Virus record (IMG/VR): IMGVR_UViG_2541047701_000003
Reading direction: 5' to 3' (one strand)
DNA length: 44,188 nucleotides
Origin: a virus
Lineage: Duplodnaviria; Heunggongvirae; Uroviricota; Caudoviricetes
In this document: piece after piece, positions 734-42,399 of the stretch
How the letters are laid out: every line of letters starts with the position of its first letter
Position numbering within the stretch: position 1 is the stretch's first letter
Notes under the pieces: model-generated
What the model saw: the letters and a program-made list of their open reading frames with translations, nothing else
Databases searched by the model: none
Told to the model about the DNA's origin: nothing
Made by a program: the position numbers and the translations under genes

Positions 734-1810
734 TCAGAGCAGTAAGTACGTTTTTTCTCTCTCATCAAGATACATTTTTGTTGTCTTCTCCGATGTGTGG
801 CCAAGTAGACGTTGAGCAAATTCTTCCCCACATGTTTCTTTGTACAATCGTCCAGCCAGGCTTCTGATCTCGTGAAAAGTTGGTGGGTTTTCACTGAACT
901 GGATACCTGTTAATTTTCTGGCTGCGACAAATTTCTTTGTCAGGCCGTCCGGGTGAATGCTGCCGTCAGGGCTGTTTTTTCTAATCCCGGCACTGATTAG
1001 ATAATCCCCCCTACTTACCATGCGGCACTGTTCAACTACTGCACCAAGTCGTAAACCAGCGACAGGAAGGCTGAGTGACAGGGGGATAGCAATCATCATT
1101 CCTGTCTTAATTTGCCTGATGTGGAGACGATCATCATAAATCTCACTGAACCGCATATTTGTTATGTCTTCGCGACGTTGTCCTGTTACAAGGGCTAAGT
1201 CCATAGCTAATGGGAACCATGTCGGAAGTTGATCTGCTGCCTCCCTGATGCAGTTGTATGTCTTTAGTTTCAGCCGTTCTCTTGTAACTACTATTTTCGG
1301 TGCTCTTGTTGGCGTTACTGGATTTTGAGATATACGTCCTTCAACAATGGCCTCGCGGAACATATCAGATAACACAGAACGCATTGATCCTGCCATCGTG
1401 TTTTTCCCTCCTTCAATCCACAAATCAAGAAACTCGGCAATATGGCGAGTGGTTATTTCTGTCAGTAAAACCCCTCCTAATTTTTCTTTTATTGTCTCCA
1501 GTTGATTTACCCGAATTTTATAAGTATTTCTGGACACTTTTCTCCTTATAAGAATCGTTTTGTAACGTTCAATCCAGTCTGCCATAGTAAATGAGTCGAA
1601 CCCTTTTAGTTTTTCAATTAAGGCAGCAGGAGAGTAGTTTTTGTATATATAATGATTTGCTTCAATTGCCTGCGCTACTGCATCTCTTCTTGAAATTTTA
1701 CCTAGTGTAAATTCTTCTTTCGTCAGAGGGTTGCGCCAGTAATATGCTTTGTCCCTCCTTCGATATGTTAAGTTTTTAGGCAAATTGGGATCGTATTTTT
1801 TCCGCTGCAT
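734..1810 (-). CDS. int: Tyrosine integrase, lambda Int family
   Basis: 358 aa; alignable by eye to lambda Int along its length ([29 protein letters not shown]-terminal catalytic motifs); adjacent to attL. Confidence 0.85.
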
Positions 1811-2057
1811 GTTTTAACTTCTCCAGTAACGGACTGTCTCTCCCTTGTCGCCCATTAGGCTGATGGTGTGTTATATCGGTATCAACCTTATTTGGGTTGA
1901 TATAGAAAGCTTCCGGAACCACCCTGTAACTCCTCCCGTGTAGTTCAGGTGCAGGATAAATGTTTCCATTCCTTGCCCATCGTCTCAGCGTTGATATTGA
2001 TGGTGGGTTATCCGGATATCTGAGTTTTCCCCACGTTTTGAGTGTCACAAGATTCAT
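1776..2057 (-). CDS. xis: Excisionase (Xis-like)
   Basis: Small basic protein immediately upstream of and overlapping int; start chosen at second ATG (MNLVTL...) which has AAGAGG at suitable spacing. Confidence 0.6.
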   Translation of the reverse strand: MNLVTLKTWGKLRYPDNPPSISTLRRWARNGNIYPAPELHGRSYRVVPEAFYINPNKVDTDITHHQPNGRQGRDSPLLEKLKHAAEKIRSQFA

Positions 2058-2163
2058 TGCCATACCTCTTACGATATGACCGCCAGTAAATATACAGAAT
2101 ACTGGCGGGTGTGGTTGATTTTTAATAATCAGCTATGAAGTTCTAATTTGTATATAATGCAAC

Positions 2164-2352
2164 TCACGAGGACAGAAGTTTCTCGCAATTAAAATTTATC
2201 AGCTTTACTTTCTGCTCTCTGGACACGCCTGCTTCTTTTTTCCCTGAGAGCATTTTTTCGCATTCTGATTTCGTTAATTTAGATTTTGAATATCTTGTCC
2301 AGTTAGTAGGAGTGCCACCTTCTTTTTCAATAGTGGCAGTTATTTTATACAT
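2164..2352 (-). CDS. Hypothetical small protein (position equivalent to Rac ydaC)
   Basis: 62 aa from ATG with GGAGG SD; overlaps stop of upstream Lar gene by 8 nt. Confidence 0.4.
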   Translation of the reverse strand: MYKITATIEKEGGTPTNWTRYSKSKLTKSECEKMLSGKKEAGVSREQKVKLINFNCEKLLSS

Positions 2353-2554
2353 GAACACCTCCATTATTATTTCCAGTAGTTCGTTTATTCCATCTTTCGA
2401 GTGCTTCTTTTTCACTTCCACCATAGCCAGTTCGGGATTCGCATCCGTTGCATTTTGCCCGGTAATATCCTGAAATGGCTTTCACCGTTACTGATGGACA
2501 ACCACAAAACGGACATGGTTTGACTTTTTCATACCGCATTGTCTTTTCTCTCAT
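2345..2554 (-). CDS. Lar-family restriction alleviation protein (zinc ribbon)
   Basis: 69 aa with CPFCG...C..C motif and WNKR, as remembered for Lar/RalR family. Confidence 0.6.
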   Translation of the reverse strand: MREKTMRYEKVKPCPFCGCPSVTVKAISGYYRAKCNGCESRTGYGGSEKEALERWNKRTTGNNNGGVHV

Positions 2555-2602: not shown

Positions 2603-3655
2603 TCAGGAGCCGATATATTCTGGTTTCATATCTGTCAGTGTCGTTTTATACGCCTCATATAATTCTCCCAGATGTGGTCGTGCAGCATTCAGCGTATTTT
2701 CCAGAGCAATAAATTTTTGTTCTGCTTCTGGATCACCTGATGAAGGCAGGTCATTTATCATCTTCTCAATACGGGCAATAGCATTGAGACGGTGATGACG
2801 CTGAACCACTTTTCCTTTAAGTTCTGTGTAGAGAGCGCCAAGTGTATTTTTATGATCTTCCACTTCCTGGCGAAGTGCTGTTGTTTCTCCGGTGCTTTGT
2901 GCCTGCTCAATACGTTCACGGAAAGCACTGATCCAGTTTTCCCCGGCATCCTGCTCAATAATTGTTGTTTCACGTTCCGCACGGCAGGCGGATGTGTTTT
3001 TATGTTCCTGAACCGGATTAATGATTTTTTCCTGTGGTTCGTCCAGTTCGTCCCGGGTGTACACTCCAAGAATCACTTCAGGGCAATAAAGGCGCGCCCA
3101 GCGTTTCAGAGCCAGATAGGCAAGCTGCTGGCGAGGATCATCGGCCCATAACGTTGAGTTACGTGTTCTGGCCTGCGCCAGAAGTAACTCCAGTACGCGT
3201 GGCTTGCTCTCTCCGCGTAGTGTTGCCTGGACGCGAACACCGATCCCGTTTTCATCGGCCAGCTTCCAGCCAGGTACACGATATTCTTTCCCCTTGTCGT
3301 TCTTCCTGATTTCAAATTTCCCGATAATTTTTTCCCACGGCCCGAACCAGTCATATTCAATACGCCCGGTTAGCGGCCCACGAGTACTGATTACGGCATT
3401 AACCAGTTGCGCTTCATATCCGAGCACACCATTCACAACGAAAGTTTTCTGAGCTACTGCGTAAGGGTTCATTTGCCACTGCATCGCCTGCATGGTGATG
3501 GCCATGCAGTCTGATGGATTTCCCCGGAGGTGTTCCGGTACAGTAGCCATGCCGGAAGCCATTACCTGGGAAAATGTCTGAATTGCAGCCAGGGACTGAG
3601 GGCTGAAAACCGCAACATTAGAGTTAATATTTTCTTGTTGAGTTAATTCGTTCAT
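2603..3655 (-). CDS. Phage single-strand annealing recombinase (RecT/Red-beta-like)
   Basis: 350 aa directly downstream of recE; segment RQQLAYLALKRWARLYCPEVILGVYTRDELDE resembles the conserved Red-beta region; GGAAGGA SD. Confidence 0.6.
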   Translation of the reverse strand: MNELTQQENINSNVAVFSPQSLAAIQTFSQVMASGMATVPEHLRGNPSDCMAITMQAMQWQMNPYAVAQKTFVVNGVLGYEAQLVNAVISTRGPLTGRIEYDWFGPWEKIIGKFEIRKNDKGKEYRVPGWKLADENGIGVRVQATLRGESKPRVLELLLAQARTRNSTLWADDPRQQLAYLALKRWARLYCPEVILGVYTRDELDEPQEKIINPVQEHKNTSACRAERETTIIEQDAGENWISAFRERIEQAQSTGETTALRQEVEDHKNTLGALYTELKGKVVQRHHRLNAIARIEKMINDLPSSGDPEAEQKFIALENTLNAARPHLGELYEAYKTTLTDMKPEYIGS

Positions 3656-3666
3656 TGTGTCCTTCC

Positions 3667-6600
3667 TCAGATGCTCAGTGCTTCAAGACGACGAAGATCA
3701 AAGTCGTTTAATTCGTCGGTATAACTTTCGGTAATCGGTGCTGGCCAGTTGTTTGTCTCCAGAGCTTCGTTTATCTGTCGTAGTGTCCGGCGATATTCCT
3801 GTCGACCAAGTTCCAGGAGTTCCTGCGAGGCTTCCACGACGGCCACCCAGTGATAGCCAGCATCTTTGTTGACGAAGATCCAGAAAAATTTGTCCAGGTT
3901 TGCCACATCGCAATACATTGCTGCGCTGAGGTGATAATCACGTTCAATAATTTCACGGTGCAGGCGATCTTTCAGTCGTTCCTGTCGCACATAACCGAGG
4001 CTGACTGACTTCACGTCGGCGCAAATGCTTTCGTATGGCAGCCGGATTTCGATATCAGGACGGACCCTGATTTCCAGCCCGGTTTCTTCATCAAACCCGA
4101 AATAGCTGATTTCAGATTTGCGATCCGGGTGGTTGAGTAGCCTTGCTGCATCGGTATTGTTTTGCAGTGCCGCGTGAATATTTTTTGCCTGTTCATACAT
4201 ATCCGGACTGATAAACGTTTTCCCGGCGTTTTCTTCTTGCTGGCGTTTTTGCCAGTCCTCCAGCGTCACCAGTTCCGGGCGAATTTTCCGCGCGATTTCG
4301 GTTAATTGCTCTTTTGTGCCACTGATGTTGTAAGGCAAAGATTTAGCACGTTCTTTTTTTGCCAGTTCTGGGTCTACAGCTTCAATTTGATCCAGAAGCT
4401 GCTCCCGTGCTCCACTGGTTTTCAACAGAGGAGGGAGGCTTGCGTTGTATTCTTTAATACAGGCTTTCATTGCTGATGCTGTGTGTTTTTCCCCCTCAGG
4501 AATACGCCGAAATTCCACCGGAAGCGAACCGTAAAGGATGCCTGTTTCTTCGGCCCCAGCACTTATAGACAGTGGCTGTATAAGAGTGCTGTTGTAGCTT
4601 TCGATCCACTCTTTCATCTGCTCTGGTGTCATCAGTGCTGGCAGACTGGCATTGTGTTTTTTAATGATGGCGATCAGTTCGTTAGAAGTAGTAACCACAT
4701 ATTCAGGAACCGGTACCGGAATGGCATATTCATCAGCGAATTTATCCGTTTCCAGAACATAGCTGTGAATGATCCGCCCACGCAGCAGTGCATCACTTTC
4801 CTCGTTCGGAATAGTTCCGGCAATGTGCCGCCCGTGGTAATACATCAGGCTGATACGGGCATCCTTCAGCATCGTGCTGCTTATTCCGTTGGCGGAGTGA
4901 TAAACCTCGTTCGGGAGGTTTTCATAGCGGCCAGGCTCGAAATATGATGGCCACATGATTTCAGTTACTACAGGTGCTGTCGCTTCACCAGTTTCATCAC
5001 CGCAATCGCGATGCAGATCGCTGCCAGCATTCTCATTGTGCGGATGTTCAGGGCCTTCCATTTCCTCCGGCTCTTTTTCCTGAGATTCATCCAGATTTTC
5101 TTCATTAAAGGTTTCCTGATACGTTGCGTCGCCCATCACCGCGCCACAGTCAGGACAGTTGCCGCCGCCAGTCTGACCGCAGGCGGTGCAAACTTTCTCC
5201 GTTTCCTGTTGTTGCACTACTGGCTCAGGCTGTTTCGTTTCTGGCTCGTTTTGTTGCGTATTTGGGTCGTTCTGTTCCGTTTCTGGCTGATTCTGGTACA
5301 CAGAATCGCGGGTCTGGATCCCCTTAACCCATTTCGGATCATTCGGGTCGCTAATCCCTTCAACAAATTCTCCGCGAGAGGCAGCCAGTAATTTGTCTGC
5401 ATCGACAGGATTTTTGGGCGGAATGTTTTTCCGGGCTTCATAGAGTTCTGCCCGCAGTTTCTGATATTTCGCATCAACAGAATTTACCTGTGACTGAGCA
5501 TCCAGCGGCTGCGTGTCCTGATGATGTTCAGTTGCATCCGGTTCCACTGTTTCAGCCGTTGCCTGTTCATCTGCCATTGCGCAAGATGGTTGCAGTTTTT
5601 CTTCATCATCCTGTTTTTCTTCTTCTGTTACACGCTGCGGCATCGGGGCAGAGGAACGACCGCAGGCAATATCCACGATTTCTGGATCAGGGTTGGCATG
5701 ATCAGTTTCAGTCAGTACTTTGTTAAGATATTCAGTGACGTGTGCGGGGATAACCTCGATCCCAATTGGTGCTTCTTTTACGGACGCAACCACGATGGCG
5801 CGGGAATAATCCAGCCCGCCAGGCATGGTGATGAATTTGTCGCGGAAAACAGAAAAGGGCGGTTTATTTTCAGCGATAATTTCCTCGACACGTTTAGCGT
5901 GTGCCGGATGAAGGTTATAAATGTCCACGTCCATTGAACGAGCCAGTACGCCAGTCGCTACGTCGCGCGCCAGTGACGTCAGATCGTGAACGAAACCTTC
6001 GCCGCGATCGGTGAGGTTCCCGCCGCCAGCATTAGCGCCGGAAGCCGTGCGCGTGATGCATGAAACACGATTTCCTTTCATCCACTCTTTTGTCAGCAGA
6101 CCGCGATCGGTGTAGTCTGCGTCCAGGTATGCTTCGAAAAAAGCAGTCATCAGCCCCAGGCTTGAATTGCCTGGATTAGGGAAAACTCTGTCAGTATCAC
6201 GCACCAGTTTGTGGAGATCGCGAATTTCCAGCGGGTCGAGCAGGCTGGTTTTGTGGGAAACAGCCAGGGCAGTAACAGCTGGTAGTTCTTCAGCTCGTGC
6301 AATGTGTAATGCCTGTAGTTCGTCGCGTGAAACGTGCGTTACCGGTTTTTCGCTGCCGTGTTGAGCAAGCCAGCGAATGGGCAGCTCCTGACCGGAAATC
6401 GGGAGTAGCATATTCTCCTCAATCTCCGTCATGTCTTCGCCATTAACATTGGTATTGTCAGTGCTGGCTGGTTTGTCCTGCGCAGAGGATGAGGGCGTGA
6501 TAAATACCATTGTGATGCCATCTTCCCCGCCTTTTTCGTAACGGTTGCAGAATTCCGTATCAAATACGCCTTCTGGTGGAAGGTCATCAACAACGGGCAA

Positions 6601-6795
6601 ATTGACGCGAACAGGTTTTTTAAAGTCATCTTCATCGTAGCCAGCATCGTCAATCGCAACAGCACCACGGGAGATGGCAATGGATAATTTTTTCGCTTCA
6701 GCCCAGTAGAAACCGCCTTTAATACCGAGACGTTTTCTTACTTTGTCATTTTTTGCTTCGTAATACAGTGGGTAAACTTGTTTATCGGTGCTCAT
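3667..6795 (-). CDS. recE: Exodeoxyribonuclease VIII (RecE-like)
   Basis: 1042 aa; long stretches ([43 protein letters not shown]...) recalled as RecE of Rac; C-terminal nuclease domain. Confidence 0.7.
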
Positions 6796-6894: not shown

Positions 6895-7170
6895 TCAGAT
6901 TTCACCTTTTAATTTCATTGCAATCAGAGTTGCCAGAAATTCGGCTTTTTTTTCTGCGGGCAGATTCTTTCCTATGTGCACCAGACACATTTTTTTAACA
7001 CCATCGTTAAGTGTTTTAACGTTGCCTGATGGACCGTCGATATCAACCACAGTGAATGGGGTTTCTTTATTTTCTGTCTTAATCACGTAGCCAATACGCT
7101 TTCCTTCCAGGGTAACTTCGTGAACAATGTCATCAGTAGTAACAACAGTGGCTTCATAACTGGTAATCAT
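6895..7170 (-). CDS. RacC-like hypothetical protein
   Basis: 91 aa from ATG with AAGGAGAAAAAC SD; size and position match racC of Rac. Confidence 0.45.
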   Translation of the reverse strand: MITSYEATVVTTDDIVHEVTLEGKRIGYVIKTENKETPFTVVDIDGPSGNVKTLNDGVKKMCLVHIGKNLPAEKKAEFLATLIAMKLKGEI

Positions 7171-7244
7171 GTTTTTCTCCTTAATTAAGGTTGAGCGAAT
7201 CCCTGCCATTGCTGGCATAAATTCAGTTTCGGATAGTCAGTTAA

Positions 7245-7415
7245 TTAAAGTTCGTGTGCCATCTGGTCTTTTTCGGCACAGATTTCACTACAATATTTTT
7301 TCATTTCCGTCGTTGGTATAACTCCACGCATGAAATGAAGTGGTCTTGTAATGATTTTGCTCTCTTCAATTTCTTTATTGCAAAGGTGATAAGCACATTT
7401 TATTTTCTTAGTCAT
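7245..7415 (-). CDS. YdaE-like small zinc-ribbon protein (not in supplied ORF track, below 60 aa)
   Basis: 56-aa [23 protein letters not shown]...CSEICAEKDQMAHEL with two CxxxC pairs; ATG overlaps the kilR stop (TAATG coupling). Confidence 0.5.
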   Translation of the reverse strand: MTKKIKCAYHLCNKEIEESKIITRPLHFMRGVIPTTEMKKYCSEICAEKDQMAHEL

Positions 7416-7636
7416 TACCATGACTCCGCCTTTACAGGTAAACCATCACGACCGAGGAAGACTCTAATCATGCAGTCAGAAATGCATGTTTTTGTAGTCA
7501 GGCTACGAATATAAAGTTTTCGCTTTTTAATATTGTTTGCCGAGGCGATATATGTCCGACCTTCATGAAGAACATAATCGCCAGGGGTCACACACTGACG
7601 TGGTATTTCATCAGTTCCGAAGTGATGAGCAATCAT
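7415..7636 (-). CDS. kilR: KilR-like FtsZ inhibitor (Rac kil)
   Basis: 73 aa from [44 protein letters not shown]..., recalled as near-identical to Rac KilR; GGAG SD before this ATG. Confidence 0.7.
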
Positions 7637-7988
7637 AATTATCTCCATTTTTACAAATGAATTTTGTCGATGCGGTGCCTGGTGCCTCCAGGTGACGTTA
7701 ACCAGTTAACAATTAACGCCGGATAATCCACCCATAACACTGATGCTTTTAACTGTGCCGCGTGCGCTTAGCCGCATTCACCGCATCACAAAATTCACTT
7801 TAAAAAGGGGCGGCAGGGCAGCCACGGAGTAGAACTGATGCCGCCAAAGACTACACATAGCAATGTCGTTATTTACAACCGGAGGCGCACTCCCACCATT
7901 TAAATTTAACAGACAAGACCGACTCTTTATGAATACCGGAAATGCGCCTTCGTGTTGTGCGCCTGTCTTTTTACCACTTCAGGCTCGG

Positions 7989-8709: not shown

Positions 8710-9129
8710 TTACTCCGGTGGGGGATTATCTTTAAGCCTGCCTCTCAAATATTTTTCTACATACTCATCGATTTCTTTTAGCCGGACTTCAAATAGCTCA
8801 ATCATTCGTTGTTGTTCTGAGCCCGGTAGCTGGTTAAACAACTCAAGAAGTTTTCGTTGGGATTCATTTAACCACAATTCAGAAGATTCCTGTTCTCCAA
8901 ATAGGAGCTCAGGAGGAGATATGCCAAGTGCCTTTCCCAATACGACAGCGTCATGCACTCCAACATTTCTGCTGCCCGCCTCATAGTTACCTATACGCGA
9001 TTGCGTCCATCCGCAGATTTCAGCAAGTTTTCCTTGAGATAAACCAAGCTTCTGCCTGCGCTCTTTAAGACGCATTGCAATTTTGTCATTGAGCCTACTA
9101 GCGGCAATTTTTTCGTTTTCTTTTTCCAT
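8710..9129 (-). CDS. Prophage repressor, XRE-family HTH (cI/RacR-like)
   Basis: 139 aa; HTH LGLSQGKLAEICGWTQSRIGNYEAG; divergent from Cro-like gene across an operator-containing intergenic region. Confidence 0.7.
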   Translation of the reverse strand: MEKENEKIAASRLNDKIAMRLKERRQKLGLSQGKLAEICGWTQSRIGNYEAGSRNVGVHDAVVLGKALGISPPELLFGEQESSELWLNESQRKLLELFNQLPGSEQQRMIELFEVRLKEIDEYVEKYLRGRLKDNPPPE

Positions 9130-9225: not shown

Positions 9226-9468
9226 ATGAACAAAATTTCAACATATCGAAAACAGCTTGGGCTGTCTCAAAGACAACTTGCTGTTCAGTTAGGGTGGATA
9301 CAAAGCCGACTGGCAAATTACGAAGCAAATTTTCGTACCCCTGGACTAGAGGAGTGCAGAAAAATTGTTTCTACCCTTAATCGGCTTGGCGCTCATTGTG
9401 GACTTGACGATGTATTCCCCCCAGACGGTAAGCATAGCGAAAACAGCATAGGAGCGGTTGATTCATGA
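9226..9468 (+). CDS. Cro-like HTH regulator (YdaS-like)
   Basis: 80 aa; HTH LGLSQRQLAVQLGWIQSRLANYEA; GGAGG SD; first gene rightward of operator region. Confidence 0.6.
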   Translation: MNKISTYRKQLGLSQRQLAVQLGWIQSRLANYEANFRTPGLEECRKIVSTLNRLGAHCGLDDVFPPDGKHSENSIGAVDS

Positions 9469-9887
9469 AAATCAGGCATGAGCACATCGAATCAGTGTTG
9501 TTAGCCCTGGCAGCCGAAAAAGGGCAGGCGTGGGTCGCTAACGCAATTACTGAAGAATATCTGCGCCAGGGGGGCGGCGAATTGCCCCTTGTACCAGGCA
9601 AGGACTGGAACAATCAGCAGAATATCTATCACCGTTGGTTGAAAGGTGAAACGAAAGCGCAAAGGGAAAAAATTCAGAAACTGATCCCTGCGGTTCTGGC
9701 AATTCTTCCGCGCGAGCTGCGTCACCGACTCTGCATCTTCGATACCCTGGAACGCCGTGCATTACTGGCGGCGCAGGAAGCGTTGAGTACGGCAATTGAT
9801 GCGCATGATGATGCAGTCCAGGCCGTTTACCGGAAAGCACATTTCAGCGGTGGTGGGTCGCCCGGCGATTCTGTCGTAGTGCATTGA
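9465..9887 (+). CDS. YdaT-like protein (early regulator/toxin family of Rac)
   Basis: 140 aa, ATGA-coupled to Cro-like gene; size and position match ydaT of Rac. Confidence 0.5.
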   Translation: MKIRHEHIESVLLALAAEKGQAWVANAITEEYLRQGGGELPLVPGKDWNNQQNIYHRWLKGETKAQREKIQKLIPAVLAILPRELRHRLCIFDTLERRALLAAQEALSTAIDAHDDAVQAVYRKAHFSGGGSPGDSVVVH

Positions 9888-34081: not shown

Positions 34082-34668
34082 TGGATATTCTCTCTACACT
34101 TTTTCATCAGCAGAGCAGAAAAATAGGAATGATTGTTCCCAGTGTTGTTATTTCAGAGAAGCATACAGATATGCTTGAAATAACAGAGCATCCGGTAGAG
34201 GTCGGGGCCGCTGTCGCTGATCATGCCTATAAAAAACCGTCAGAAGTGGTGATGGAGGTTGGTTTCGCCGGTGGCGGCGCATTGCTGGATTTTGCCAGTA
34301 ACCTGACGGCTACCAGCCTGCTCGGCCTGAGTCCTCAGCAGACGTATCAGGAGCTACTGGATCTGCAGGAAAGCCGTATCCCCTTCGATGTGGTAACCGG
34401 TAAACGGCTGTACAGCAACATGTTGATCCGGGCGCTGGAAGTGACGACGGACAAGACAACCGAAAACGTCCTGTCCGCCGTCCTCACCCTGAGGGAGGTC
34501 ATTATCTCCCGGACACAGCAGATTACCGTCGCGGATAAAACCAACATGAAGGAAGGGGCCAGCACGTCGGCGGTACAGAACAGCGGCAACAAAACCACAA
34601 AACCTCCAGATACTTCACTGCTGAAAAGCATCACGGGTAACGTGGCGTCATTACTGGGGGGCGGCTAA
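34081..34668 (+). CDS. Putative tail/baseplate protein
   Basis: 195-aa ORF from GTG overlapping TMP stop. Confidence 0.45.
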   Translation: MDILSTLFHQQSRKIGMIVPSVVISEKHTDMLEITEHPVEVGAAVADHAYKKPSEVVMEVGFAGGGALLDFASNLTATSLLGLSPQQTYQELLDLQESRIPFDVVTGKRLYSNMLIRALEVTTDKTTENVLSAVLTLREVIISRTQQITVADKTNMKEGASTSAVQNSGNKTTKPPDTSLLKSITGNVASLLGGG

Positions 34669-34970
34669 TGACAATTCAGGAAATTCCGCTGACAGCGGAC
34701 AACCAGCAGTTCAGCATCGTCCTGGGTGGTGTCACCTGGCGGATTAGCATCATATGGCGCGATCTGTACTGGATTATGGACCTGCAGAACGACAGAGGGG
34801 AGCCGGTAATCTCCGGTATTCCTCTCGTCACTGGTGCTGACCTGCTGGCGCAGTACGCCTGTATGGGGCTTGGTTTTAAGCTGGTGGTGGTCTGTGATGA
34901 CAACACACAGGATTACCCCACAAAAACTGACCTGGGCGGTCGCAGCCATTTACTGGTATCAACGGAGTAA
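34668..34970 (+). CDS. Putative tail/baseplate protein
   Basis: 100-aa coupled ORF. Confidence 0.4.
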   Translation: MTIQEIPLTADNQQFSIVLGGVTWRISIIWRDLYWIMDLQNDRGEPVISGIPLVTGADLLAQYACMGLGFKLVVVCDDNTQDYPTKTDLGGRSHLLVSTE

Positions 34971-34972
34971 GC

Positions 34973-36037
34973 ATGTCACAGAACTGGATGAGACATTTCG
35001 AGCTGCAGCTTGTGGACGGGAACGGTCAGGGAATTGAGCTAAGTGATTTTAAAGTCACCTTTACGATCGACTGGTTCAACATCAGCAGCGCGTCCCGGGT
35101 AGGGACTATCAAAATTTATAACCTCTCGGCAGATACTGTGAACCGAATTACCGGGCAGGAGTTTTCGAAAGTGCGTCTGATTGCGGGTTACGACGGTATC
35201 GCGCCGGAGGTGTCGGCAAGCGACGTCGGGACAGTGCGGGAAGTTGACGCGGCGGACGTGGGCCAGAGTGATGGTCGCAACTACGGACTGATTTTCAGCG
35301 GTGAAATTCGCTACTCGGTCACAGGAAAAGACAGTCCGGTTGATTCCTACGTCCTGATTCAGGCAGCCGATACTGATCTGGCTTTTGCCACCAGTATAAC
35401 CTCACAGACGCTGGCTGCCGGTTACACGGTCGCTGATGTAAACCGTGCGCTGATGAAAGACTTCGAAGCCAAAGGCGCGACCGAAGGCCTGACGCCTGAA
35501 ATGCCTGCTACTGTATTCCCCCGGGGGCGGGTACTCTTTGGCATGACGCGGCATCTAATGGATAACGTAGCCGGGCAATGTGGCGCAACATGGCAATTCG
35601 TGGATGGTCAGCGCCAGATGGTGGCGAATAACGAATATGTTCATGAAGCGATTGTGCTCAACAGCGCTACCGGGCTTATTGGCATGCCGCAGCAGACTAT
35701 CGGTAACGGCGTAAACGTCCGCGCGCTTATTAATCCGAACATCCGGGTTAATGGACTCATTCAGCTGGATCAGGCTTCAGTGTATCGTACCGCGTTGTCG
35801 AACAACGATATTGCGATGGCTGGTGGTCAGATCACCGACCAGAACACGGATGGAAATATCACGCTAAGCGGCACCACATCGCAGCCTGCCAGCATCGCAA
35901 CGGATGGCGTTTATATTGTGCGCGGGATTATGTACACTGGCGACACAAGGGGCCAGGCGTGGTACATGGATATGATGTGCGAAGCGCGCGGTGCGCAGGA
36001 TATGCCATCCAGCACTGCTTTGCAGAGAGGATTATAG
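34973..36037 (+). CDS. Putative baseplate hub/tail protein
   Basis: 354-aa ORF in tail block. Confidence 0.45.
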   Translation: MSQNWMRHFELQLVDGNGQGIELSDFKVTFTIDWFNISSASRVGTIKIYNLSADTVNRITGQEFSKVRLIAGYDGIAPEVSASDVGTVREVDAADVGQSDGRNYGLIFSGEIRYSVTGKDSPVDSYVLIQAADTDLAFATSITSQTLAAGYTVADVNRALMKDFEAKGATEGLTPEMPATVFPRGRVLFGMTRHLMDNVAGQCGATWQFVDGQRQMVANNEYVHEAIVLNSATGLIGMPQQTIGNGVNVRALINPNIRVNGLIQLDQASVYRTALSNNDIAMAGGQITDQNTDGNITLSGTTSQPASIATDGVYIVRGIMYTGDTRGQAWYMDMMCEARGAQDMPSSTALQRGL

Positions 36038-36039
36038 AA

Positions 36040-36387
36040 ATGAAACGATGGATATTTTCATTGCTGGCGTTAGTGTCTGTTGGTGTAAGTGCAAACACCA
36101 TAACGATGCAATGCGGCAACTTTCGTATGGATGCGATCCCTGACTCATTATTTAAAATCAATGGCGAAACAGTAACATCCCAAAAAGTAAAAATGTTGGG
36201 TAAAGACGGTACAGGCATGCAGATCAAAATGGAGCTGATGCCTGCCAAAGATGGCAACAATTATGGGTTCGAGTATATCCATCGACCGGGCACTAAAACG
36301 CGTTTCCTGAACGTCCAGTTGTTGCAGAACAGCATGGACGCGCCGAAAATTATCGGCTCCTTCCCGTGTAAAAAAGTGCCTGGTTGA
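36040..36387 (+). CDS. Secreted protein with signal peptide (moron)
   Basis: 115 aa; MKRWIFSLLALVSVGVSA signal peptide, two Cys; lower GC than neighbours. Confidence 0.5.
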   Translation: MKRWIFSLLALVSVGVSANTITMQCGNFRMDAIPDSLFKINGETVTSQKVKMLGKDGTGMQIKMELMPAKDGNNYGFEYIHRPGTKTRFLNVQLLQNSMDAPKIIGSFPCKKVPG

Positions 36388-36400
36388 AGGCAGGCACTTT
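36373..36400. terminator. Bidirectional hairpin terminator between convergent moron genes
   Basis: AAAGTGCCTG-gttgaagg-CAGGCACTTT with T-rich flanks on both strands. Confidence 0.45.
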
Positions 36401-36406
36401 CTTTAA

Positions 36407-36772
36407 TCATTCCTTTTTGATTTCGATTTCTTCTTTAGCCTCACTGAATAGTTTAAAAAGTTCTTCATCGGTGAGGTTGCTTGCTTCGATTTTGTAGCCG
36501 CCTTTTTTGATGATTATCTTCTTACTGTGTTTTGCTCTAATCCATGCGGCCACAACAGCAGCGACGCTATAACAAACATCTTTGTTTTGGATAAATTCAA
36601 AAATGTATCCGAGTATCACTGATGCGGGTGAGGATGCAGAAGGCGCTGAATCACCTACCCGCGCCCTTACACCCATTTTTCTGGCTTCAGCGGGGATGAT
36701 CTCCTCGATATAAGGGATCAACTCTTCCCCTACGGATTTTGAGAGGCGTACTTTGAAAACTGATTTAGTCAT
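36407..36772 (-). CDS. Hypothetical protein (moron, opposite strand inside tail operon)
   Basis: 121-aa ORF, Lys/Glu/Ile-rich, AT-rich codon usage. Confidence 0.5.
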   Translation of the reverse strand: MTKSVFKVRLSKSVGEELIPYIEEIIPAEARKMGVRARVGDSAPSASSPASVILGYIFEFIQNKDVCYSVAAVVAAWIRAKHSKKIIIKKGGYKIEASNLTDEELFKLFSEAKEEIEIKKE

Positions 36773-36953
36773 AACCTTTGGCGGCTCCTTCCGGAAAAGA
36801 ATTAATGCTATATGGTCACTGGCTGGAACTTTGTTGGCTTTGGTCTTTTATGGCGAGGCAAAAATCGTTCTTAAAAACTATTGCCATCAAGATGAGCCGA
36901 AAAAGGTGTAACACCAACACCTGATAATTTATATCCTGATATTTGATCAGTAA

Positions 36954-36976
36954 CCCGCCACCCGGCGGGTTTTTTG
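36954..36976 (+). terminator. Rho-independent terminator just upstream of baseplate genes
   Basis: CCCGCC-accc-GGCGGG followed by TTTTTTG. Confidence 0.45.
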
Positions 36977-36994
36977 CTTTCTGGAGCCTACAAA

Positions 36995-37747
36995 ATGGCA
37001 GTATCTGACCAGACCCGCAGCGGCGACCTTGCCGAAACATTCAAATCCGAGCGGGAAACCACAAAGAACCAGATCCGCGTCGCTTTGCCTGGCATCGTTC
37101 AGTCATTCGATCCTGACGCGGTGACGGCGGTTGTGCAGCCTGCTATTCGTTCGGTTGAAACCGACAACGACGGCAACCGCGTAACCAAAAATTACCCGCT
37201 GCTGGTGGATGTGCCGGTGGTATTTCCGCGCGGCGGCGGCTGCACGTTAACTTTCCCGGTAAAAGCCGGCGATGAATGCCTGGTGATTTTTGCCGATCGT
37301 TGTATTGATTTCTGGTGGCAGAACGGCGGGATACAGGAGCCTGTTGATGACAGAATGCATGATTTATCGGATGCGTTTTGTATTGTCGGTCCCCAGTCGC
37401 AGGCAAGGAAGATTAGCGGTATTAATACCAGTGCCACACAGTTGCGTAGTGATGACGGCAGCACCTATTTTGAGCTTAATCCTGATACCAGGAAAATTAA
37501 AATTGTCGCTCCGGGGGGCCTTGATGTGGTTGCCCCTCTGGCTGATTTTTCTGAGAAAGTAACCATTCATGGCCTGTTAACCTGGATGGGAGGCATGGTG
37601 GGGTCTGTTGTTTCTGGTGTGGCTTCAAAAATCACTGGTGCTGTTGAGTTTTTGGGTAGCGTGAAGGCTAACGGCAAGCCAATCGATGATACGCACACTC
37701 ATGGTGGTGTTCAGCGCGGTGGAAGCAATACCGACGGAGTAAACTGA
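36995..37747 (+). CDS. Baseplate central spike protein (gpV/Mu gp45-like)
   Basis: 251 aa from ATG with TGGAG SD; PLLVDVPVVFPRGGG...GDECLVIFADRCIDFWW pattern typical of phage baseplate V proteins. Confidence 0.55.
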   Translation: MAVSDQTRSGDLAETFKSERETTKNQIRVALPGIVQSFDPDAVTAVVQPAIRSVETDNDGNRVTKNYPLLVDVPVVFPRGGGCTLTFPVKAGDECLVIFADRCIDFWWQNGGIQEPVDDRMHDLSDAFCIVGPQSQARKISGINTSATQLRSDDGSTYFELNPDTRKIKIVAPGGLDVVAPLADFSEKVTIHGLLTWMGGMVGSVVSGVASKITGAVEFLGSVKANGKPIDDTHTHGGVQRGGSNTDGVN

Positions 37748-38100
37748 TGCGATACAGACGTGAAGACGCCGATGGCGATTACACCTTTGGCAGCGGTGAT
37801 GACACCTGGCTGATTAACTCGCCTGAGGCCGTAGCACAGGCTGTGAAAACGCGATTCGAATTGTGGTATGGGCAATGGTTTCTCGACACCACCGAAGGGA
37901 CTCCGTGGATCCAGTCCGTGCTCGGTAAGCAGAAGCCGGAAACCTACAACCTGGCGATCCGTAAGCGCATCCTCGAAACGCGGGGCGTTAAATCAATCCT
38001 CTCTTTCAATACGACAGTGGATACCACGACCCGACGTGTCATGTTTTCCGCTGAAATCGACACTCTTTATGGAATAACGACTGTTACATCGGAGGCGTAA
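37747..38100 (+). CDS. Putative baseplate protein
   Basis: 117 aa, ATGA-coupled to spike gene. Confidence 0.4.
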   Translation: MRYRREDADGDYTFGSGDDTWLINSPEAVAQAVKTRFELWYGQWFLDTTEGTPWIQSVLGKQKPETYNLAIRKRILETRGVKSILSFNTTVDTTTRRVMFSAEIDTLYGITTVTSEA

Positions 38101-39299
38101 TGGCTCTGAACCTTGATTCTCTCGGTTTATCTGCAAAGGTAACTGCGGAGGGGATCAGTGCGCCTGATTATCAGACGATACTCAGCACCCTGATTAGCTA
38201 TTTTCAGCAGATTTATGGCAGTGATGCCTACCTCGAACCGGACAGCAAAGACGGCCAGATGGTGGCTCTGATGGCGCTGGCGATTCATGATGCCAATAAT
38301 ATGGCGATAACTGTCTACAACTGTTTTTCACCGGCAACCGGCTATGGGGCTGCACTGACCAGTAACGTGAAAATAAATGGTATTTCACGTAAAGGCGCGA
38401 CGAACTCTACGGTTGATTTGCTTCTTACAGGAGCTGCCGGAACAACCATCATTAATGGCAGCGTGAAAGACAGTAATAATGTGATATGGCGTTTGCCTGC
38501 TTCAGTGGTGGTCGGCGTGGATGGTACAGTGATGGCGACCGCAACATGTTCCGTCAGTGGTGCAGTGGCGGCGCTGGCTGGAACTATCACTGAAATTAAT
38601 ACGCCAACCCGTGGCTGGGTTTCGGTAACTAATCCTGCTGTGGCTACTGTGGGCACTCCGGCAGAAACTGACGCGGAGTTACGTATCCGCCAGTCGCAAA
38701 GTGTTGCGTTGCCATCAATAACCCCATTTGAAGCACTGGATGGTGCTGTTTCTAATGTTACCGGTGTAACCCGCCACAAACTCTATGAAAACGATACTGG
38801 TTCGGAGGACGGTAACGGGTTACCGCCACACTCTGTTGCTGTAATTGTGGATGGCGGTGATGTGACGGATATTGCTCAGGCTATCAGAGGAAATAAAGGC
38901 CAGGGGACAGCCACTCACGGTACAACATCCGTTACAGTTCCGGATAAATACGGCAATCCCCATGTAATCAAATTCTCGCGTTCCAGTGATGTGCCTGTTT
39001 ATGCCCGGATCAAATTAAAAGTTTTTACGGGTTATACCTCACAGATAGGGCAGCAGATCCAGCAGGCTATTTCCGACTATATCAATAGTCTGATGATTGG
39101 TGATTCGGTCCTTTTAAGTCGCATTTACTCACCGGCGAATCTTGGCGTGGTGAGTGGCGGGAATGCACGCTATTACGATATTCAGGAACTGACGATTGGG
39201 AAATCCCCGGGGGCTTTGTCGTCATCAAACATTGATATCAGATACAACGAATCTGCGTCCTGTACCCCGGAAAATATCGTTATAACGGTGGAGTCATGA
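38100..39299 (+). CDS. Putative baseplate wedge protein (J-like)
   Basis: 399 aa, coupled, position typical. Confidence 0.45.
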   Translation: MALNLDSLGLSAKVTAEGISAPDYQTILSTLISYFQQIYGSDAYLEPDSKDGQMVALMALAIHDANNMAITVYNCFSPATGYGAALTSNVKINGISRKGATNSTVDLLLTGAAGTTIINGSVKDSNNVIWRLPASVVVGVDGTVMATATCSVSGAVAALAGTITEINTPTRGWVSVTNPAVATVGTPAETDAELRIRQSQSVALPSITPFEALDGAVSNVTGVTRHKLYENDTGSEDGNGLPPHSVAVIVDGGDVTDIAQAIRGNKGQGTATHGTTSVTVPDKYGNPHVIKFSRSSDVPVYARIKLKVFTGYTSQIGQQIQQAISDYINSLMIGDSVLLSRIYSPANLGVVSGGNARYYDIQELTIGKSPGALSSSNIDIRYNESASCTPENIVITVES

Positions 39300-39976
39300 G
39301 CAAATACACCGAACTGATCACGAACTACCACGCCACCAAACCTAAATTTCTTGCACATGTTGATCTGATGACCCGGCCGCTTATTGATGTTGCGGCTGCC
39401 ACCAGAGGGCTGATTACTGCATTTGATATTGACTCTGCGGTTGGTGTGCAACTTGACATTCTTGGATTGTGGATCGGACGTAGCCGTGTTGTCAGCCAGC
39501 CTATCTCAGGTGTCTATTTCAGCTGGGATACCGACGGGCTTGGATATGATCAGGGTGTATGGCAGGGGCCATACGATCCTGATTCCGGATACATGTACCT
39601 CAGCGATGAAACTTATCGTGTCATCCTTAAAGCGAAGATTGCGATTAATAACTGGGACGGACGGAATGATTCGCTTCCGGCAATTCTTGACGCGGCGACA
39701 GCAGGATCCGGACTGCGAATGCAGATAGTCGATAACCAGGACATGACGATATCGGTCTGGCTCTTTCCTGATACTGATATTTCAGATGTATCGCGTGAGT
39801 TAATTGCTGCAATTAAACAGGGATATCTCACAGTAAAAGCCGCCGGGGTTTGGGCGGGTGGCATTGAAACACCTTCGGTGGAAACTCCATCGGAAGGTTC
39901 AAAATTTTTTGGTTTTGATATGGATAACGAATTCATCAGTGGTTTTGATGTAGGGGCATGGGGAGTATTACTCTGA
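39296..39976 (+). CDS. Putative baseplate/tail fibre attachment protein
   Basis: 226 aa, coupled. Confidence 0.4.
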   Translation: MSKYTELITNYHATKPKFLAHVDLMTRPLIDVAAATRGLITAFDIDSAVGVQLDILGLWIGRSRVVSQPISGVYFSWDTDGLGYDQGVWQGPYDPDSGYMYLSDETYRVILKAKIAINNWDGRNDSLPAILDAATAGSGLRMQIVDNQDMTISVWLFPDTDISDVSRELIAAIKQGYLTVKAAGVWAGGIETPSVETPSEGSKFFGFDMDNEFISGFDVGAWGVLL

Positions 39977-42399
39977 TGGCGAAAAATGACTTTAAAGCGT
40001 TTGCAACTGATCGGAATGCCAATGTTATGTCGCAGGAGGAATGGGAAGCGTTGCCTGCGCTTTTATCCGGATTTACAGCAGGGAAAGCATCCAGTGCGCA
40101 GGTGAACAAAGCCATTCGACAGGCCAGCTTTATTGCTGCAGCTCTGGCCCAGTTTGTAAGTGACAAAACGCAACGGGATGTGCTTGATAATGGTGATCTG
40201 CCCGGTTTTGTTGAATTGCTTGGATCGGGGTTTGCTGTTGAATACCTGAGTCGCAAGAATCCGTTTGGTGATATCAAATCGGACGGCACGGTAGAACGCG
40301 CTCTTGAAAATCTGGGGTTACAGGATGTAAAAGCTGGTTCATTGAACAATCTGTACACTAACCATTCCCGTAGTGTCTTAATGGAATTGCCGTTATTATT
40401 CCCGGACTACGATACGGTGCTGGCTGCTCAGTCTGGTGCGGAATATATGTATCCACAGGGATTTGTGGTGACAGGAGAAAAAATCTATCTGAGTTATACC
40501 GTTGAGCCAAAGCAGACACGGAACGTTATAGTTCAGTACACAACATCCGGCGAATATGAGGGATATTATTATGTCGATAATGGAGGTCGTGGCGTTGTCA
40601 GCGAAGGCCTTGTGGTGACAACGGATTACGGTGGATTACGTTTGTTCATGTCAGGAGAAAATGGATTACTGAAACAGTTTTCGCTTGATGGGGCAATTTC
40701 TGGTTCAGTATTGCCGTTAATTGATGAACATGATGTCGGTGTTTACAACCAGTTCAGCTATCGTAAAAACCGCTGGGTGGTTGAACAGTCAGCGCCGGAA
40801 GTGGGAGGCCTGATCACCCGCACAGTATTTGCGGTGTATGATTTTCAGTTTCGTCGGACAGGGACATTCACATTACCGTTGCATGATTCCGGATATATCA
40901 CGGAAAGCACAGACAGCTATGCAAGACGCTTCACAAAACGTCAGGGAATTGCTGTGGGAGACGATTATATTGCCTGTTCTTATGGTGGCTATTTTAATAC
41001 CGGGGCATCAGCCGGATTTAACCAGTTTCAGGGGGTTAAGGTCTTTTCTCCGGATGGAGTAAAGCAGCAGGAATCCATTCTTCATCCCCAAAAAATGATA
41101 GATGTGCTTACCAGGCAGGGTTTTACACCTTCGCGCATTGAGAACGAAGGAATTTGTATTTCTGACGACGGCGGCAGTATATATTCGCTTTATATCTTTC
41201 TGGAGCGTGGGTTACCACAGGCTTATCAGAAAGGAATTGTTCTGATGAAAGAGTTCAGTACTGGCAGAGATGCTATTGATTTTCGTCAGGCAGCCTGGTT
41301 GTACACGGGGTTTGATGTGTCTCATGCCAGTATTGGAACATTTCCCCGTAGTGCCCAGGGGTTGGTAAACCCGGTGTTGGGGACGGTATTCACATCCCTG
41401 TCTGAAATTCTGGCATATATGCGTTCTGTGAGTCAGAAATGGTTTTGTCTGCATACAACCACGACACCGATTAAAGATCTGAGTGGAAATGACATTCCTG
41501 CTGACAATTATGTGTTCATCAAGAATGCTAATAACCAGACATTCTATATAACGCAGGAGTCAGCTGAAGGTGGAATAAAATATAAAGCTGTCACTACAGA
41601 CAGCGGAGAATATGGTTTTCAGCGACAAAGAGAGGCAATCTGGTCCAATGTTATCACCATCGCACAAAAGAGCGATGGTGAGGATCAGTTTAATCGTATT
41701 ATCGCTGCCTCGAAAAGTGGTTCAGGTAAAAATCAGGATAAAATACTGGTAGTTGACCAACAGGCATCAGAGGGGAATAACACGCTGGTAATTGGCGGTG
41801 GTTCATCTGTGTTCAGGTCAGCGACAGTGATTGATTTTGCAACGAATCAGGATGCAAATGCCACAGGAGGAGAAAAGAGATGGCGCATAGATTCATCAGG
41901 AAATCTCCGCCCTTATACAGATAATACGTATTCGATCGGTTATGCCTCATGGCGACCCGCACAGGTTTATTCAGCTACGGGAAGTATCAGTACATCAGAC
42001 CGGACTCATAAACAGGACGAAACAATTCTGTCGGATGCAGAAAAAAGGGTTGCCAGAAAGCTGCTCGGGTATATCTGTCGGTTCCGTTTCAGGGATGCAG
42101 TGTCCAGCAAAGGGAACGCAGCCAGATGGCATGTAGGAGTGATTGCTCAGGACGTACAGAAGGTCTTCTCTGAGGAAGGGCTGGACGCTTTTGATTACGG
42201 TATTTTGTGTCGTGATGAATATCCGGCGGAATATGAAGTGGTTTACGGGACTCGTATGGAGCTTGGTCCTGACGGACTCCTTACAATGGAAGAATACGAT
42301 ACCGGAGAGCGCAAGCTGGTCAGGGAGGCTGGTGAAATAATGTCTGTAAGGAATGATGAGCTGCATTATTTCATGCTGGCATCGCTGTCTGGCCAGTGA
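39958..42399 (+). CDS. Tail fibre/tailspike with C-terminal intramolecular chaperone (peptidase S74-like) domain; alternative start at 39976
   Basis: 813 aa; C-terminus ...DRTHKQDETILSDAEKRVARKLLGYICRFRFRDAVS...WHVGVIAQDV... resembles self-cleaving chaperone domains of endosialidase-type fibres. Confidence 0.7.
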   Translation: MGSITLMAKNDFKAFATDRNANVMSQEEWEALPALLSGFTAGKASSAQVNKAIRQASFIAAALAQFVSDKTQRDVLDNGDLPGFVELLGSGFAVEYLSRKNPFGDIKSDGTVERALENLGLQDVKAGSLNNLYTNHSRSVLMELPLLFPDYDTVLAAQSGAEYMYPQGFVVTGEKIYLSYTVEPKQTRNVIVQYTTSGEYEGYYYVDNGGRGVVSEGLVVTTDYGGLRLFMSGENGLLKQFSLDGAISGSVLPLIDEHDVGVYNQFSYRKNRWVVEQSAPEVGGLITRTVFAVYDFQFRRTGTFTLPLHDSGYITESTDSYARRFTKRQGIAVGDDYIACSYGGYFNTGASAGFNQFQGVKVFSPDGVKQQESILHPQKMIDVLTRQGFTPSRIENEGICISDDGGSIYSLYIFLERGLPQAYQKGIVLMKEFSTGRDAIDFRQAAWLYTGFDVSHASIGTFPRSAQGLVNPVLGTVFTSLSEILAYMRSVSQKWFCLHTTTTPIKDLSGNDIPADNYVFIKNANNQTFYITQESAEGGIKYKAVTTDSGEYGFQRQREAIWSNVITIAQKSDGEDQFNRIIAASKSGSGKNQDKILVVDQQASEGNNTLVIGGGSSVFRSATVIDFATNQDANATGGEKRWRIDSSGNLRPYTDNTYSIGYASWRPAQVYSATGSISTSDRTHKQDETILSDAEKRVARKLLGYICRFRFRDAVSSKGNAARWHVGVIAQDVQKVFSEEGLDAFDYGILCRDEYPAEYEVVYGTRMELGPDGLLTMEEYDTGERKLVREAGEIMSVRNDELHYFMLASLSGQ

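Follow-up and report, generated by a model that had tools for sequence, protein, structure and literature searches.

A probably functional Escherichia coli prophage in sdsR that joins a Rac-like early region to a SEN34-like contractile-tail module

Temperate phages in which lambda-like genetics are combined with a contractile tail have been described before. The Salmonella phage SEN34 (Brunovirus SEN34; cluster 'temperate 26' of Casjens and Grose) is mitomycin-inducible and plaque-forming and shows a long contractile tail by electron microscopy, and its authors, publishing in 2017, remarked on the pairing of lambda-like genetics with myovirus morphology (PMC5261728); tail lengths of roughly 110-150 nm were reported there for SEN34 and the other myoviruses. 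A urinary E. coli phage, 923, which is released spontaneously and has vB_EcoM-683R1 as its closest record, is likewise a myovirus by transmission electron microscopy (PMC12945033). A second group of relatives is formed by the cryptic Rac prophage of E. coli K-12 and by Rac-SA53 (KU052037), a full-size Rac-like prophage at ttcA whose integrase is 98.8% identical to K-12 IntR. Features of both groups are found in the 44,188-nucleotide stretch of DNA analysed here, IMG/VR record IMGVR_UViG_2541047701_000003 (the window, by which the whole stretch is meant), in which positions 577-43106, about 42.5 kb, form one prophage between yebY and pphA. It is very likely that this element is a single temperate tailed phage, probably functional, with a lambda-like gene order, built as a modular mosaic and integrated in the small RNA (sRNA) gene sdsR.

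The mosaic genome proposed in the original prediction was recovered in all its parts, with the Rac-like early region, the contractile-tail module and the lysis module at the positions assigned to them; the extent proposed for it, 734-42399, had to be widened, the actual ends being attachment (att) cores at about 577-606 and 43096-43125. The gene order is that of the lambdoid phages (int-xis, recombination, repressor/cro, replication, nin-like genes, Q, lysis, head/tail), and the likeness to lambda itself extends to an S-family holin with an MKM start, an R endolysin at 88% protein identity and an integrase of the arm-binding type that is 38% identical to lambda Int. In contrast, the head/tail, Rz/Rz1, N, cI/cro, O/P and Red types of lambda are not found in the element, and the DNA alignment with lambda is confined to R (84% over 435 bp) and a 99-bp stretch of the b region.

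Ends, insertion site and closest relatives

Both junctions of the element were aligned with the empty K-12 site. The features at the junctions and beside them are:

503-602, plus strand: host sRNA gene sdsR/ryeB (Rfam RF00111, 118 bits; alignment with the empty K-12 site)
462-606, minus strand: SraC/RyeA antisense body (Rfam RF00101, 180 bits)
577-606, strand not applicable: attL core ACAGGAATCGTATTCGGTCTTTTTTT (junction alignment)
43096-43125, strand not applicable: attR core ACAGGAATCGTGTTCGGTCTCTTTTT (junction alignment)
734-1810, minus strand: tyrosine integrase (Pfam Phage_integrase, Arm-DNA-bind_1)
1776-2063, minus strand: excisionase (Pfam Exc)

Imperfect direct repeats flank the element, attL reading GACCGAATACAGGAATCGT-A-TTCGGTCT-T-TTTTTA and attR ...GAAAACAGGAATCGT-G-TTCGGTCT-C-TTTTTA, and the empty K-12 site is rebuilt exactly from the two junctions. 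Since the 11-bp sequence ACAGGAATCGT is identical in attL (577-587), attR (43096-43106) and attB, the crossover must lie inside this stretch. The predicted attP joins 43095 to 588. The insertion point falls in the last ca. 25 nt of sdsR, which form its 3' terminator, and the phage DNA provides a substitute terminator at attL; the terminator is rebuilt with two substitutions, one of which changes a stem G-U pair to A-U. The host genes yebY (1-342) and pphA (43253-43912), the latter followed by yebW, stand on either side, the Rfam pair of SdsR/RyeB and SraC/RyeA adjoins the integrase on its left side, and no tRNA gene is present in the window. The element is apparently a single, complete E. coli prophage inserted in sdsR. 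As had been predicted, its integration site is not that of Rac: it lies at the 3' end of sdsR, with yebY and pphA on its two sides, and not in ttcA, and the IntR integrase that goes with ttcA insertion in the Rac lineage is also absent: by tblastn, the integrase and excisionase show no match to Rac IntR/XisR, and K-12 IntR has no match in the window. Arm-type sites for the integrase could be represented by the short repeats CGAAATTTACT at 640-667.

In K-12 coordinates ryeA starts about 38 nt past the 3' end of sdsR, which suggests that ryeA/SraC is split by the insertion, its promoter and 5' end lying at attR near 43160 and the rest 42.5 kb away at attL, downstream of int. The sdsR/ryeB locus has been called an attachment site of contemporary phages (PMC3333887), and the attachment site of the Salmonella phage PhiW104 is the last 23 bp of ryeB (PMC7380047). 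Like that of the window element, the PhiW104 site in the final ~23 bp of ryeB/sdsR falls inside ryeA, the 5' part of which is thereby displaced; PhiW104 differs in its host genus, Salmonella, and the likeness considered here is one of site only.

The nearest relative is a prophage of FDAARGOS_1289 (NZ_CP069882.1, about 3,929,900-3,971,600), which has the same site and the same mosaic and is identical in DNA at 99.9% over window 20000-44188 and at 98.1% over 94% of window 1-25000. The RefSeq annotation of its yebY-pphA stretch, which is automatic and does not describe it as a phage, contains a single integrase and a single excisionase, early genes with Rac names, a lysis cassette and an extended series of structural genes. 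It differs from the window element in its replication initiator (264 versus 376 amino acids) and, in part, in its nin-like content. Across a sample of 5,426 complete E. coli genomes, coverage of at least 80% in one place was found in 27 for window 1-25000 and in 21 for 20000-44188, and the listed matches at this level are all contiguous with the yebY or pphA flank. The attL-int (sdsR-integrase) junction occurs in 228 of the 5,426 (~4%) and the sheath and tube genes in 327; the host sources include humans, chickens, pigs, cattle, mice, dogs, a pangolin and river water.

SEN34 resembles the window element in its lambda-like layout and in its contractile tail type. Colinearity between the two extends over all 24 genes from the portal gene to the DUF2612 gene, with 57-96% protein identity, and 15.7 kb of SEN34 DNA aligns at 74-88%, which amounts to about 12.3 kb of identical bases and an intergenomic similarity of about 30%. 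A genus, as defined by ICTV, requires at least 70% nucleotide similarity across the whole genome, a line below which the similarity to SEN34 falls, and the element is for this reason not a Brunovirus, even though it shares the Brunovirus morphogenesis module. SEN34 differs further in its early genes (lambda Red, O/P, NinB/G) and in its terminase, integrase, fibre and endolysin. Closer in the virion genes are the records vB_EcoM-611R5, 606R2, 683R1 and 689R2 (the 611R5 type), which are about 97% identical in DNA to the window over 22882-40319, the value for 683R1 over the virion module being 97.5%, and which have a holin and endolysin at 95-97% protein identity to those of the window. They differ in an early region with a DNA polymerase, a helicase and a TIR-like gene, in another terminase and in another integration locus.

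Of the alternatives to a functional phage, the one that survives best is that the element is a cryptic, decaying prophage like K-12 Rac, kept for a few host-useful genes and making no virions. Rac-like early regions often occur in defective elements, and two accessory genes of the near-identical FDAARGOS_1289 copy are flagged as frameshifted by the Prokaryotic Genome Annotation Pipeline (PGAP). However, DUF977, which is frameshifted in that copy, is intact in the window, full-length open reading frames (ORFs) are present for the integrase, excisionase, repressor, replication, Q-like, lysis and terminase proteins as well as for the 24 colinear virion genes, and the size of 42.5 kb agrees with the 40.7 kb of the SEN34 genome. 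Furthermore, phage records carry a virion module 97% identical to this one, and induction and imaging have been achieved for a relative. The intact appearance suggested in the original prediction was also upheld, in that the structural and regulatory genes are without visible disruption and all 24 SEN34 portal-to-baseplate genes have colinear homologues. Several observations do weigh against a functional phage: the activity of this copy (excision, replication and particle formation) is inferred from its sequence only; no LexA box was found in scans of the window, which leaves the induction signal without that explanation; a number of small early ORFs are without an assigned function; a terminator-like hairpin just upstream of the spike gene stands within the late operon, where read-through would require antitermination; and the sheath shares only 65% identity with that of SEN34, and the morphology thus follows from homology, although the sheaths of the 611R5/683R1 type are 99% identical. 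On balance decay appears unlikely, and a functional temperate phage is the reading preferred here.

The Rac-like early region

The early genes that can be set beside those of K-12 Rac are:

2164-2424, minus strand: rcbA/ydaC-like gene (97.7% protein identity to K-12 Rac)
2345-2554, minus strand: ralR/lar (95.5% protein identity to K-12 Rac)
2168-2346, plus strand: RalA antitoxin sRNA, on the strand opposite rcbA/ralR (Rfam RalA, 219 bits)
2603-3655, minus strand: RecT-family annealase, 350 amino acids (Pfam RecT, 3.5e-43)
3667-6795, minus strand: RecE exonuclease VIII (Pfam Exonuc_VIII, DUF3799), with a C-terminal PDDEXK nuclease domain
6895-7218, minus strand: racC (95.3% protein identity to K-12 Rac)
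7245-7421, minus strand: ydaE (74.1% protein identity to K-12 Rac)
7415-7648, minus strand: homologue of kilR, the FtsZ inhibitor (93.5% protein identity to K-12 Rac)
7808-7859, minus strand: DicF-family sRNA (Rfam RF00039, 60.9 bits; gathering score 48)
8710-9129, minus strand: helix-turn-helix (HTH) repressor, 139 amino acids (Pfam HTH_3)
9226-9468, plus strand: Cro-like HTH protein, 80 amino acids (Pfam HTH_3)
9465-9887, plus strand: YdaT-like protein, a CII analogue (Pfam YdaT_toxin; 95% identity to Rac)
9965-11095, plus strand: chimeric replication initiator, 376 amino acids (PHROG replication initiator), YdaU-like only in its C-terminal 102 residues (88%)
11102-11848, plus strand: YdaV, DnaC/IstB-like (PHROG primosomal, Pfam; 96.4% identity to Rac)
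11820-12632, plus strand: YdaW-like DUF1627 protein (Pfam; 93.5% identity to Rac over 168 residues)

The leftward order int-xis-rcbA-ralR-recT family-recE-racC-ydaE-kilR is that of K-12 Rac, as originally predicted, and the likeness in order and sequence covers rcbA, ralR/RalA, racC, ydaE, kilR, ydaT, ydaV and ydaW, at protein identities of 74-98%. Within this Rac-lineage operon, RalA included, the exceptions are RecT and the nuclease domain of RecE. The RecT-family protein has no detectable pairwise similarity to Rac RecT, in contrast to what had been claimed for it, and the claim for RecE held only for the N-terminal ~600 residues, over which the protein is about 85-90% identical to Rac RecE, the nuclease domain reaching 29% over 133 residues. 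A related RecE-nuclease/RecT type is carried by Rac-SA53 (RecE 81% and RecT 63% identical to the window proteins), and it appears that the exchange took in the nuclease domain together with its annealase partner, as one unit. The DicF-family sRNA lies just upstream of kilR, and the leftward operon would on this annotation contain two cell-division inhibitors in series; the corresponding kilS region of K-12 Rac aligns with the DicF region of the window but diverges in its 3' half, and it gave no DicF match.

The immunity region had been described as racR/ydaS/ydaT-like, of which only the ydaT part stands. Comparison of the repressor with RacR by BLASTP gave E=2.0 and that of the Cro-like protein with YdaS gave no alignment; in place of the RacR/YdaS pair of the Rac lineage, only the divergent HTH/HTH/YdaT arrangement is retained. 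The replication block ydaT-ydaU-ydaV-ydaW is that of the Rac lineage, YdaU being represented by the C-terminal 102 residues of the initiator alone. Short tandem repeats occur in the initiator gene (14 bp x2.2 at 10277-10308 and AGAGGA x3.5 at 10375-10395) and might be candidate origin iterons, as in lambda O. Those parts of the early region that are not Rac's are int, xis, the repressor/Cro pair, RecT, the nuclease domain of RecE and the initiator outside its C-terminal residues, namely its N-terminal part.

It has also to be considered that the element might be an essentially intact Rac, that is, the full-length version of the K-12 prophage moved to another site. The gene order, the 8-10 early proteins at 74-98% identity, the conserved RalA and the DicF-family sRNA at the position of K-12 kilS are in agreement with such an origin, but the DNA that aligns to K-12 Rac comprises only six segments, five at 87-94% identity and one of 166 bp at 75%, with a total of 5.3 kb or ~12% of the element. 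Differences extend to int, xis, the att site, sieB, the repressor, Cro, RecT, the nuclease domain of RecE and every late gene, and the late remnants of K-12 Rac (ynaA, stfR and tfaR) are lambda-like, matching lambda H, stf and tfa, with no match to the window. In addition, it is Rac-SA53 and not the window element that has the integrase and site of Rac, and ~80% of the genome does not group with Rac/Rac-SA53 on present data. A relocated Rac is therefore very improbable, and of the kinship to the cryptic Rac prophage that had been proposed, the part that concerns the early genes is sound, limited to the 5.3 kb given above, and the rest is not.

The tail genes of Rac-SA53, which were annotated in this analysis, include a sheath (phrog_205, 2e-54), a hub (phrog_196) and a baseplate wedge protein. 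The tail module of the window is of the contractile type, as predicted, but it is no departure for Rac-like phages. The two virion modules are only distantly related, the sole tblastn match being baseplate J at 26%, and Rac-SA53 differs further by its LT-IIa toxin genes as well as by ttcA and IntR. In vB_Apl-pPE4 (PP818812), a window-type early region is joined to the sheath-containing module of the Rac-SA53 type; its early region is ~94% identical in DNA over roughly half of window 1-22000, its integrase gene has the same length (1077 nt), and it matches the right arm of the window up to attR. The holins and endolysins of Rac-SA53 and pPE4 differ from those of the window. Record PP818812.1 is named Actinobacillus phage vB_Apl-pPE4, with A. 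pleuropneumoniae as the stated host; the host so given looks doubtful, unless the transfer happened very recently.

Between the replication block and the lysis genes lie the following features:

12642-17538, plus strand: nin-like region with DUF977, small ORFs, hok/sok, DUF1367, YbcO and a Q-like gene (Pfam, Rfam, PGAP annotation of the FDAARGOS_1289 prophage)
15213-15388, within this region: sok (Rfam, 120 bits)
15326-15538, plus strand: hok (hokD-like ORF), type I toxin-antitoxin partner of sok
16098-16697, plus strand: DUF1367 (Pfam)
16697-16987, plus strand: YbcO nuclease (Pfam)
~16984-17538, plus strand: Q-like antiterminator, DUF1133/Phage_antitermQ (Pfam)
17558-17756, plus strand: c4-a1b1 targets, isrK and C4 antisense RNA (Rfam RF03163, RF01394, RF01695)
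17809-18420, plus strand: ORF6N antirepressor-like gene (Pfam ORF6N)

The last two form a cassette resembling P1/P7 immI or Gifsy-1 IsrK, placed between the Q-like gene and the holin gene and preceded by a consensus-like promoter (TTGACT-17-TATATT at 17535-17563, by sequence reading) ahead of the C4/isrK RNAs. This C4-RNA/ORF6N antirepressor cassette may be the induction switch. The repressor has no Pfam match to peptidase S24, and the candidate LexA boxes were rejected: a strict search of the window for CTGT-N8-ACAG gave one match, within the tail fibre gene, which is at chance level (at least one match in 45 of 100 shuffles), and a loose search for CTG-N10-CAG scored against the 20-bp consensus reached 13/20 at best, with none near ant or the early promoters. 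Given the lack of an S24 match and of a credible LexA box, RecA-mediated cleavage of the repressor seems unlikely.

The hok/sok locus (15213-15538) of the nin-like region is shared with Rac-SA53 and many lambdoid prophages. PADLOC models applied to 10 accessory proteins gave two weak matches only (E about 1e-4, candidate family), both for the ORF6N protein, and no defence system was called.

Lysis, packaging and the virion module

The lysis cassette, the terminase and the head, neck and tail genes are arranged as follows:

19261-20630, plus strand: lysis cassette (Pfam, identity to lambda R, sequence reading)
19270-19611, plus strand: lambda S-family holin with MKM dual start (Pfam Phage_holin_3_1, 2e-27)
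19615-20091, plus strand: R-type endolysin, a transglycosylase (88% protein identity to lambda R)
20075-20467, plus strand: i-spanin with an N-terminal membrane helix (sequence reading)
20286-20630, plus strand: LysC-like lipoprotein o-spanin, lipobox LSGC (Pfam LysC)
20854-21603, plus strand: terminase small subunit (PHROG 370)
~21569-22972, plus strand: large terminase subunit of the PBSX/Terminase_3 type (Pfam Terminase_3)
22972-29862, plus strand: head and neck genes, namely portal, MuF-like, DUF2213 scaffold-like, cement, major capsid, DUF4054, Neck1, head-tail adaptor and tail terminator (Pfam, PHROGs)
29866-31011, plus strand: tail sheath, DUF3383 (phrog_205, E=1e-135)
31022-31462, plus strand: tail tube (Pam3 tube match, 1e-9)
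31466-31918, plus strand: tail assembly chaperone (Pfam Phage_TAC_15)
to 32106, plus strand: -1 extension of the chaperone (frame analysis)
32096-34081, plus strand: tape measure with a transglycosylase-like C-terminal part (PHROG/Pfam)
32096-36037, plus strand: tape measure, Dit-like protein, Pam3 gp18-like plug and baseplate hub (PHROG 2276, 817, 349, 196; Pfam Dit_like, Pam3_gp18)
36040-36387, plus strand: small secreted protein with a signal peptide, at a variable spot in the baseplate cluster
36407-36772, minus strand: moron of 121 amino acids, 42% GC, with a terminator-like hairpin just downstream
36995-39976, plus strand: baseplate spike (N-terminal spike domain and GpV apex motif), wedge subunit, baseplate J/gp47 and DUF2612 (Pfam, PHROG 120; 69-91% protein identity to SEN34)
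39958-42399, plus strand: chimeric tail fibre/spike, 813 amino acids (Pfam PF13884, Peptidase_S74; PHROG 1171, 11303)

The description of the lysis genes as lambda-type is correct for the class I S-family holin, the MKM start of which resembles the S107/S105 dual start, and for the R-type transglycosylase. It does not extend to the spanins: lambda Rz/Rz1 have no tblastn match in the window and, in place of an embedded pair, the o-spanin ORF extends 163 nt beyond the i-spanin stop, which is the overlapped LysB/LysC arrangement of P2.

The terminases, whose Terminase_3/PBSX-type large subunit would be expected to give headful (pac) ends, differ from those of both SEN34 and 611R5, and the DNA similarity to these two starts at 22882, directly before the portal gene. 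From there the head and neck proteins are 69-96% identical to those of SEN34 and 94-100% identical to those of 611R5. The sheath matches solved sheath structures among the PDB sequences (7kh1 at 6.5e-41 and, over its full length, Pam3 8hdr at 4e-24), and sheath, tube, hub, spike, wedge and gp47/J proteins, the constituents by which a myovirus is recognized, are all present by sequence. The complete packaging, head and myovirus-like tail set of the original prediction is accordingly borne out by Pfam, PHROG and PDB matches. The predicted tail module is of the contractile type, and the virions of the element itself would be expected to have myovirus morphology. That this half of the window is a tailocin, or a separate element beside a Rac-like remnant, is scarcely credible: contractile tail clusters are sometimes tailocins and the closest relatives differ between the two halves, but both terminase subunits and the portal, MuF-like, scaffold and major capsid proteins are all present, there are one integrase and one pair of att repeats, the late genes follow directly after the Q-like and lysis genes on a single strand, and in more than 20 genomes this arrangement is found as one contiguous stretch.

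The tail chaperone had been predicted to be frameshifted, and the comparison with relatives agrees with this. The -1 frame is open over 31813-32106, overlapping the tape-measure start at 32096, and the slippery run GGGAAATTTTTTG at 31861-31873 consists of three overlapping in-phase heptamers. SEN34 and 611R5 possess this run too, together with a -1 peptide that is almost the same, and both are kept although the frameshift region is only ~74% identical in DNA to SEN34. A predicted programmed -1 frameshift like that of lambda G/GT thus has good comparative support, and its fusion product would be of ~214 amino acids.

A single plus-strand operon holds the late genes and is broken only by the moron at 36407-36772. 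This gene has no Pfam or PADLOC match, and Hafnia phage yong1 is the only one among phage records in which it was found (97% protein identity); at the variable spot 36040-36772 other genes are present in SEN34 and 611R5. The strong terminator-like hairpin ahead of the spike gene, at 36952-36971 on the plus strand, reads AACCCGCC-ACCC-GGCGGGTT followed by TTTT and stands immediately upstream of that gene. DNA similarity to 611R5 stops at 40319, about 120 codons into the fibre gene. In agreement with this, the fibre shares its N-terminal ~120 residues with 611R5 and SEN34, whereas its receptor-binding part is a different one, terminated by an intramolecular, self-cleaving chaperone domain (Peptidase_S74). 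A separate fibre-assembly gene does not follow; 611R5 has an invertible Stf/Tfa set and a DNA invertase at the fibre position. In FDAARGOS_1289 the single fibre ORF is divided into two features by PGAP.

From the fibre gene to attR, ~700 bp (42400-43095) are without a convincing gene. For DNA stretches at 42791-42897, matches lie in the lambda b region and at the right end of K-12 Rac, and there are also short matches to the ends of Stx phages. One frame in this interval ends IIYDVGVSTLYKKFPVGDK, which may resemble the C-terminus of Pin-type invertases. A Pin-type invertase remnant, for which the frame reading IIYDVGVSTLYKK had been the candidate, was not substantiated, in that K-12 PinR has no match in the window at E<=1e-3 and the DNA matches are only short stretches near the Rac right end and the lambda b region.

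Modular assembly and its consequences for the host

A temperate phage of this kind would have been assembled from five blocks: an int/xis pair that targets sdsR; a Rac-like early region that has a heteroimmune repressor/Cro pair of its own and another RecE-nuclease/RecT cassette; a holin and endolysin of the lambda S/R type, accompanied by overlapped P2-type spanins; a PBSX-type terminase; and a SEN34 (Brunovirus)-like head and contractile tail that ends in a swapped fibre with its own S74 chaperone domain. Its own tyrosine integrase would insert it into the 3' terminator of sdsR/ryeB, where the HTH repressor would shut off the divergent early promoters. Induction might proceed through the ORF6N antirepressor under C4-RNA control instead of RecA-mediated cleavage, a route proposed because the repressor is without an S24 match and its length of 139 residues could hardly accommodate a domain of that kind. 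The Q-like antiterminator would then switch on one long late operon, the chaperone would be made in two forms through -1 ribosomal frameshifting, and the virion would consist of a contractile sheath round a tube with a baseplate and spike.

All of these modules, and the whole combination, are already in public genomes, and the element is an ordinary mosaic temperate phage. Neither a contractile tail on a Rac-like phage nor a lambda-like myovirus architecture is new, since Rac-SA53, pPE4 and SEN34 (2017) precede it. Its value is as a clean, well-delimited case of modular exchange among enterobacterial temperate phages: one Rac-like early region is found with two sheath-containing virion modules (that of the window and that of the Rac-SA53/pPE4 type), and one SEN34-like virion module with at least three early regions (those of the window, 611R5 and SEN34). 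Early and late blocks appear to reassort freely in this phage group, of which the window is one more combination. The gene map is also useful in that annotation pipelines name most of the tail genes only as DUFs.

For the host, insertion in sdsR/ryeA could affect the regulation exerted by sRNAs in those complete E. coli genomes (~4%) in which this integrase is present at that site, and it may shift the balance of SdsR and RyeA, as reported for PhiW104 in Salmonella. A more specific proposal, which we put forward tentatively and consider rather less than probable, is that lysogens lose the RyeA antitoxin/sponge and express more SdsR, and that induction depends on the P1-like C4-RNA/antirepressor cassette; precedents are PhiW104 for the splitting of ryeA, and P1/P7 and Gifsy-1 IsrK for the C4-RNA/antirepressor switch. 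If this were true, the prophage would in effect reset, in roughly 4% of E. coli strains, an sRNA circuit that is conserved and RpoS-dependent.

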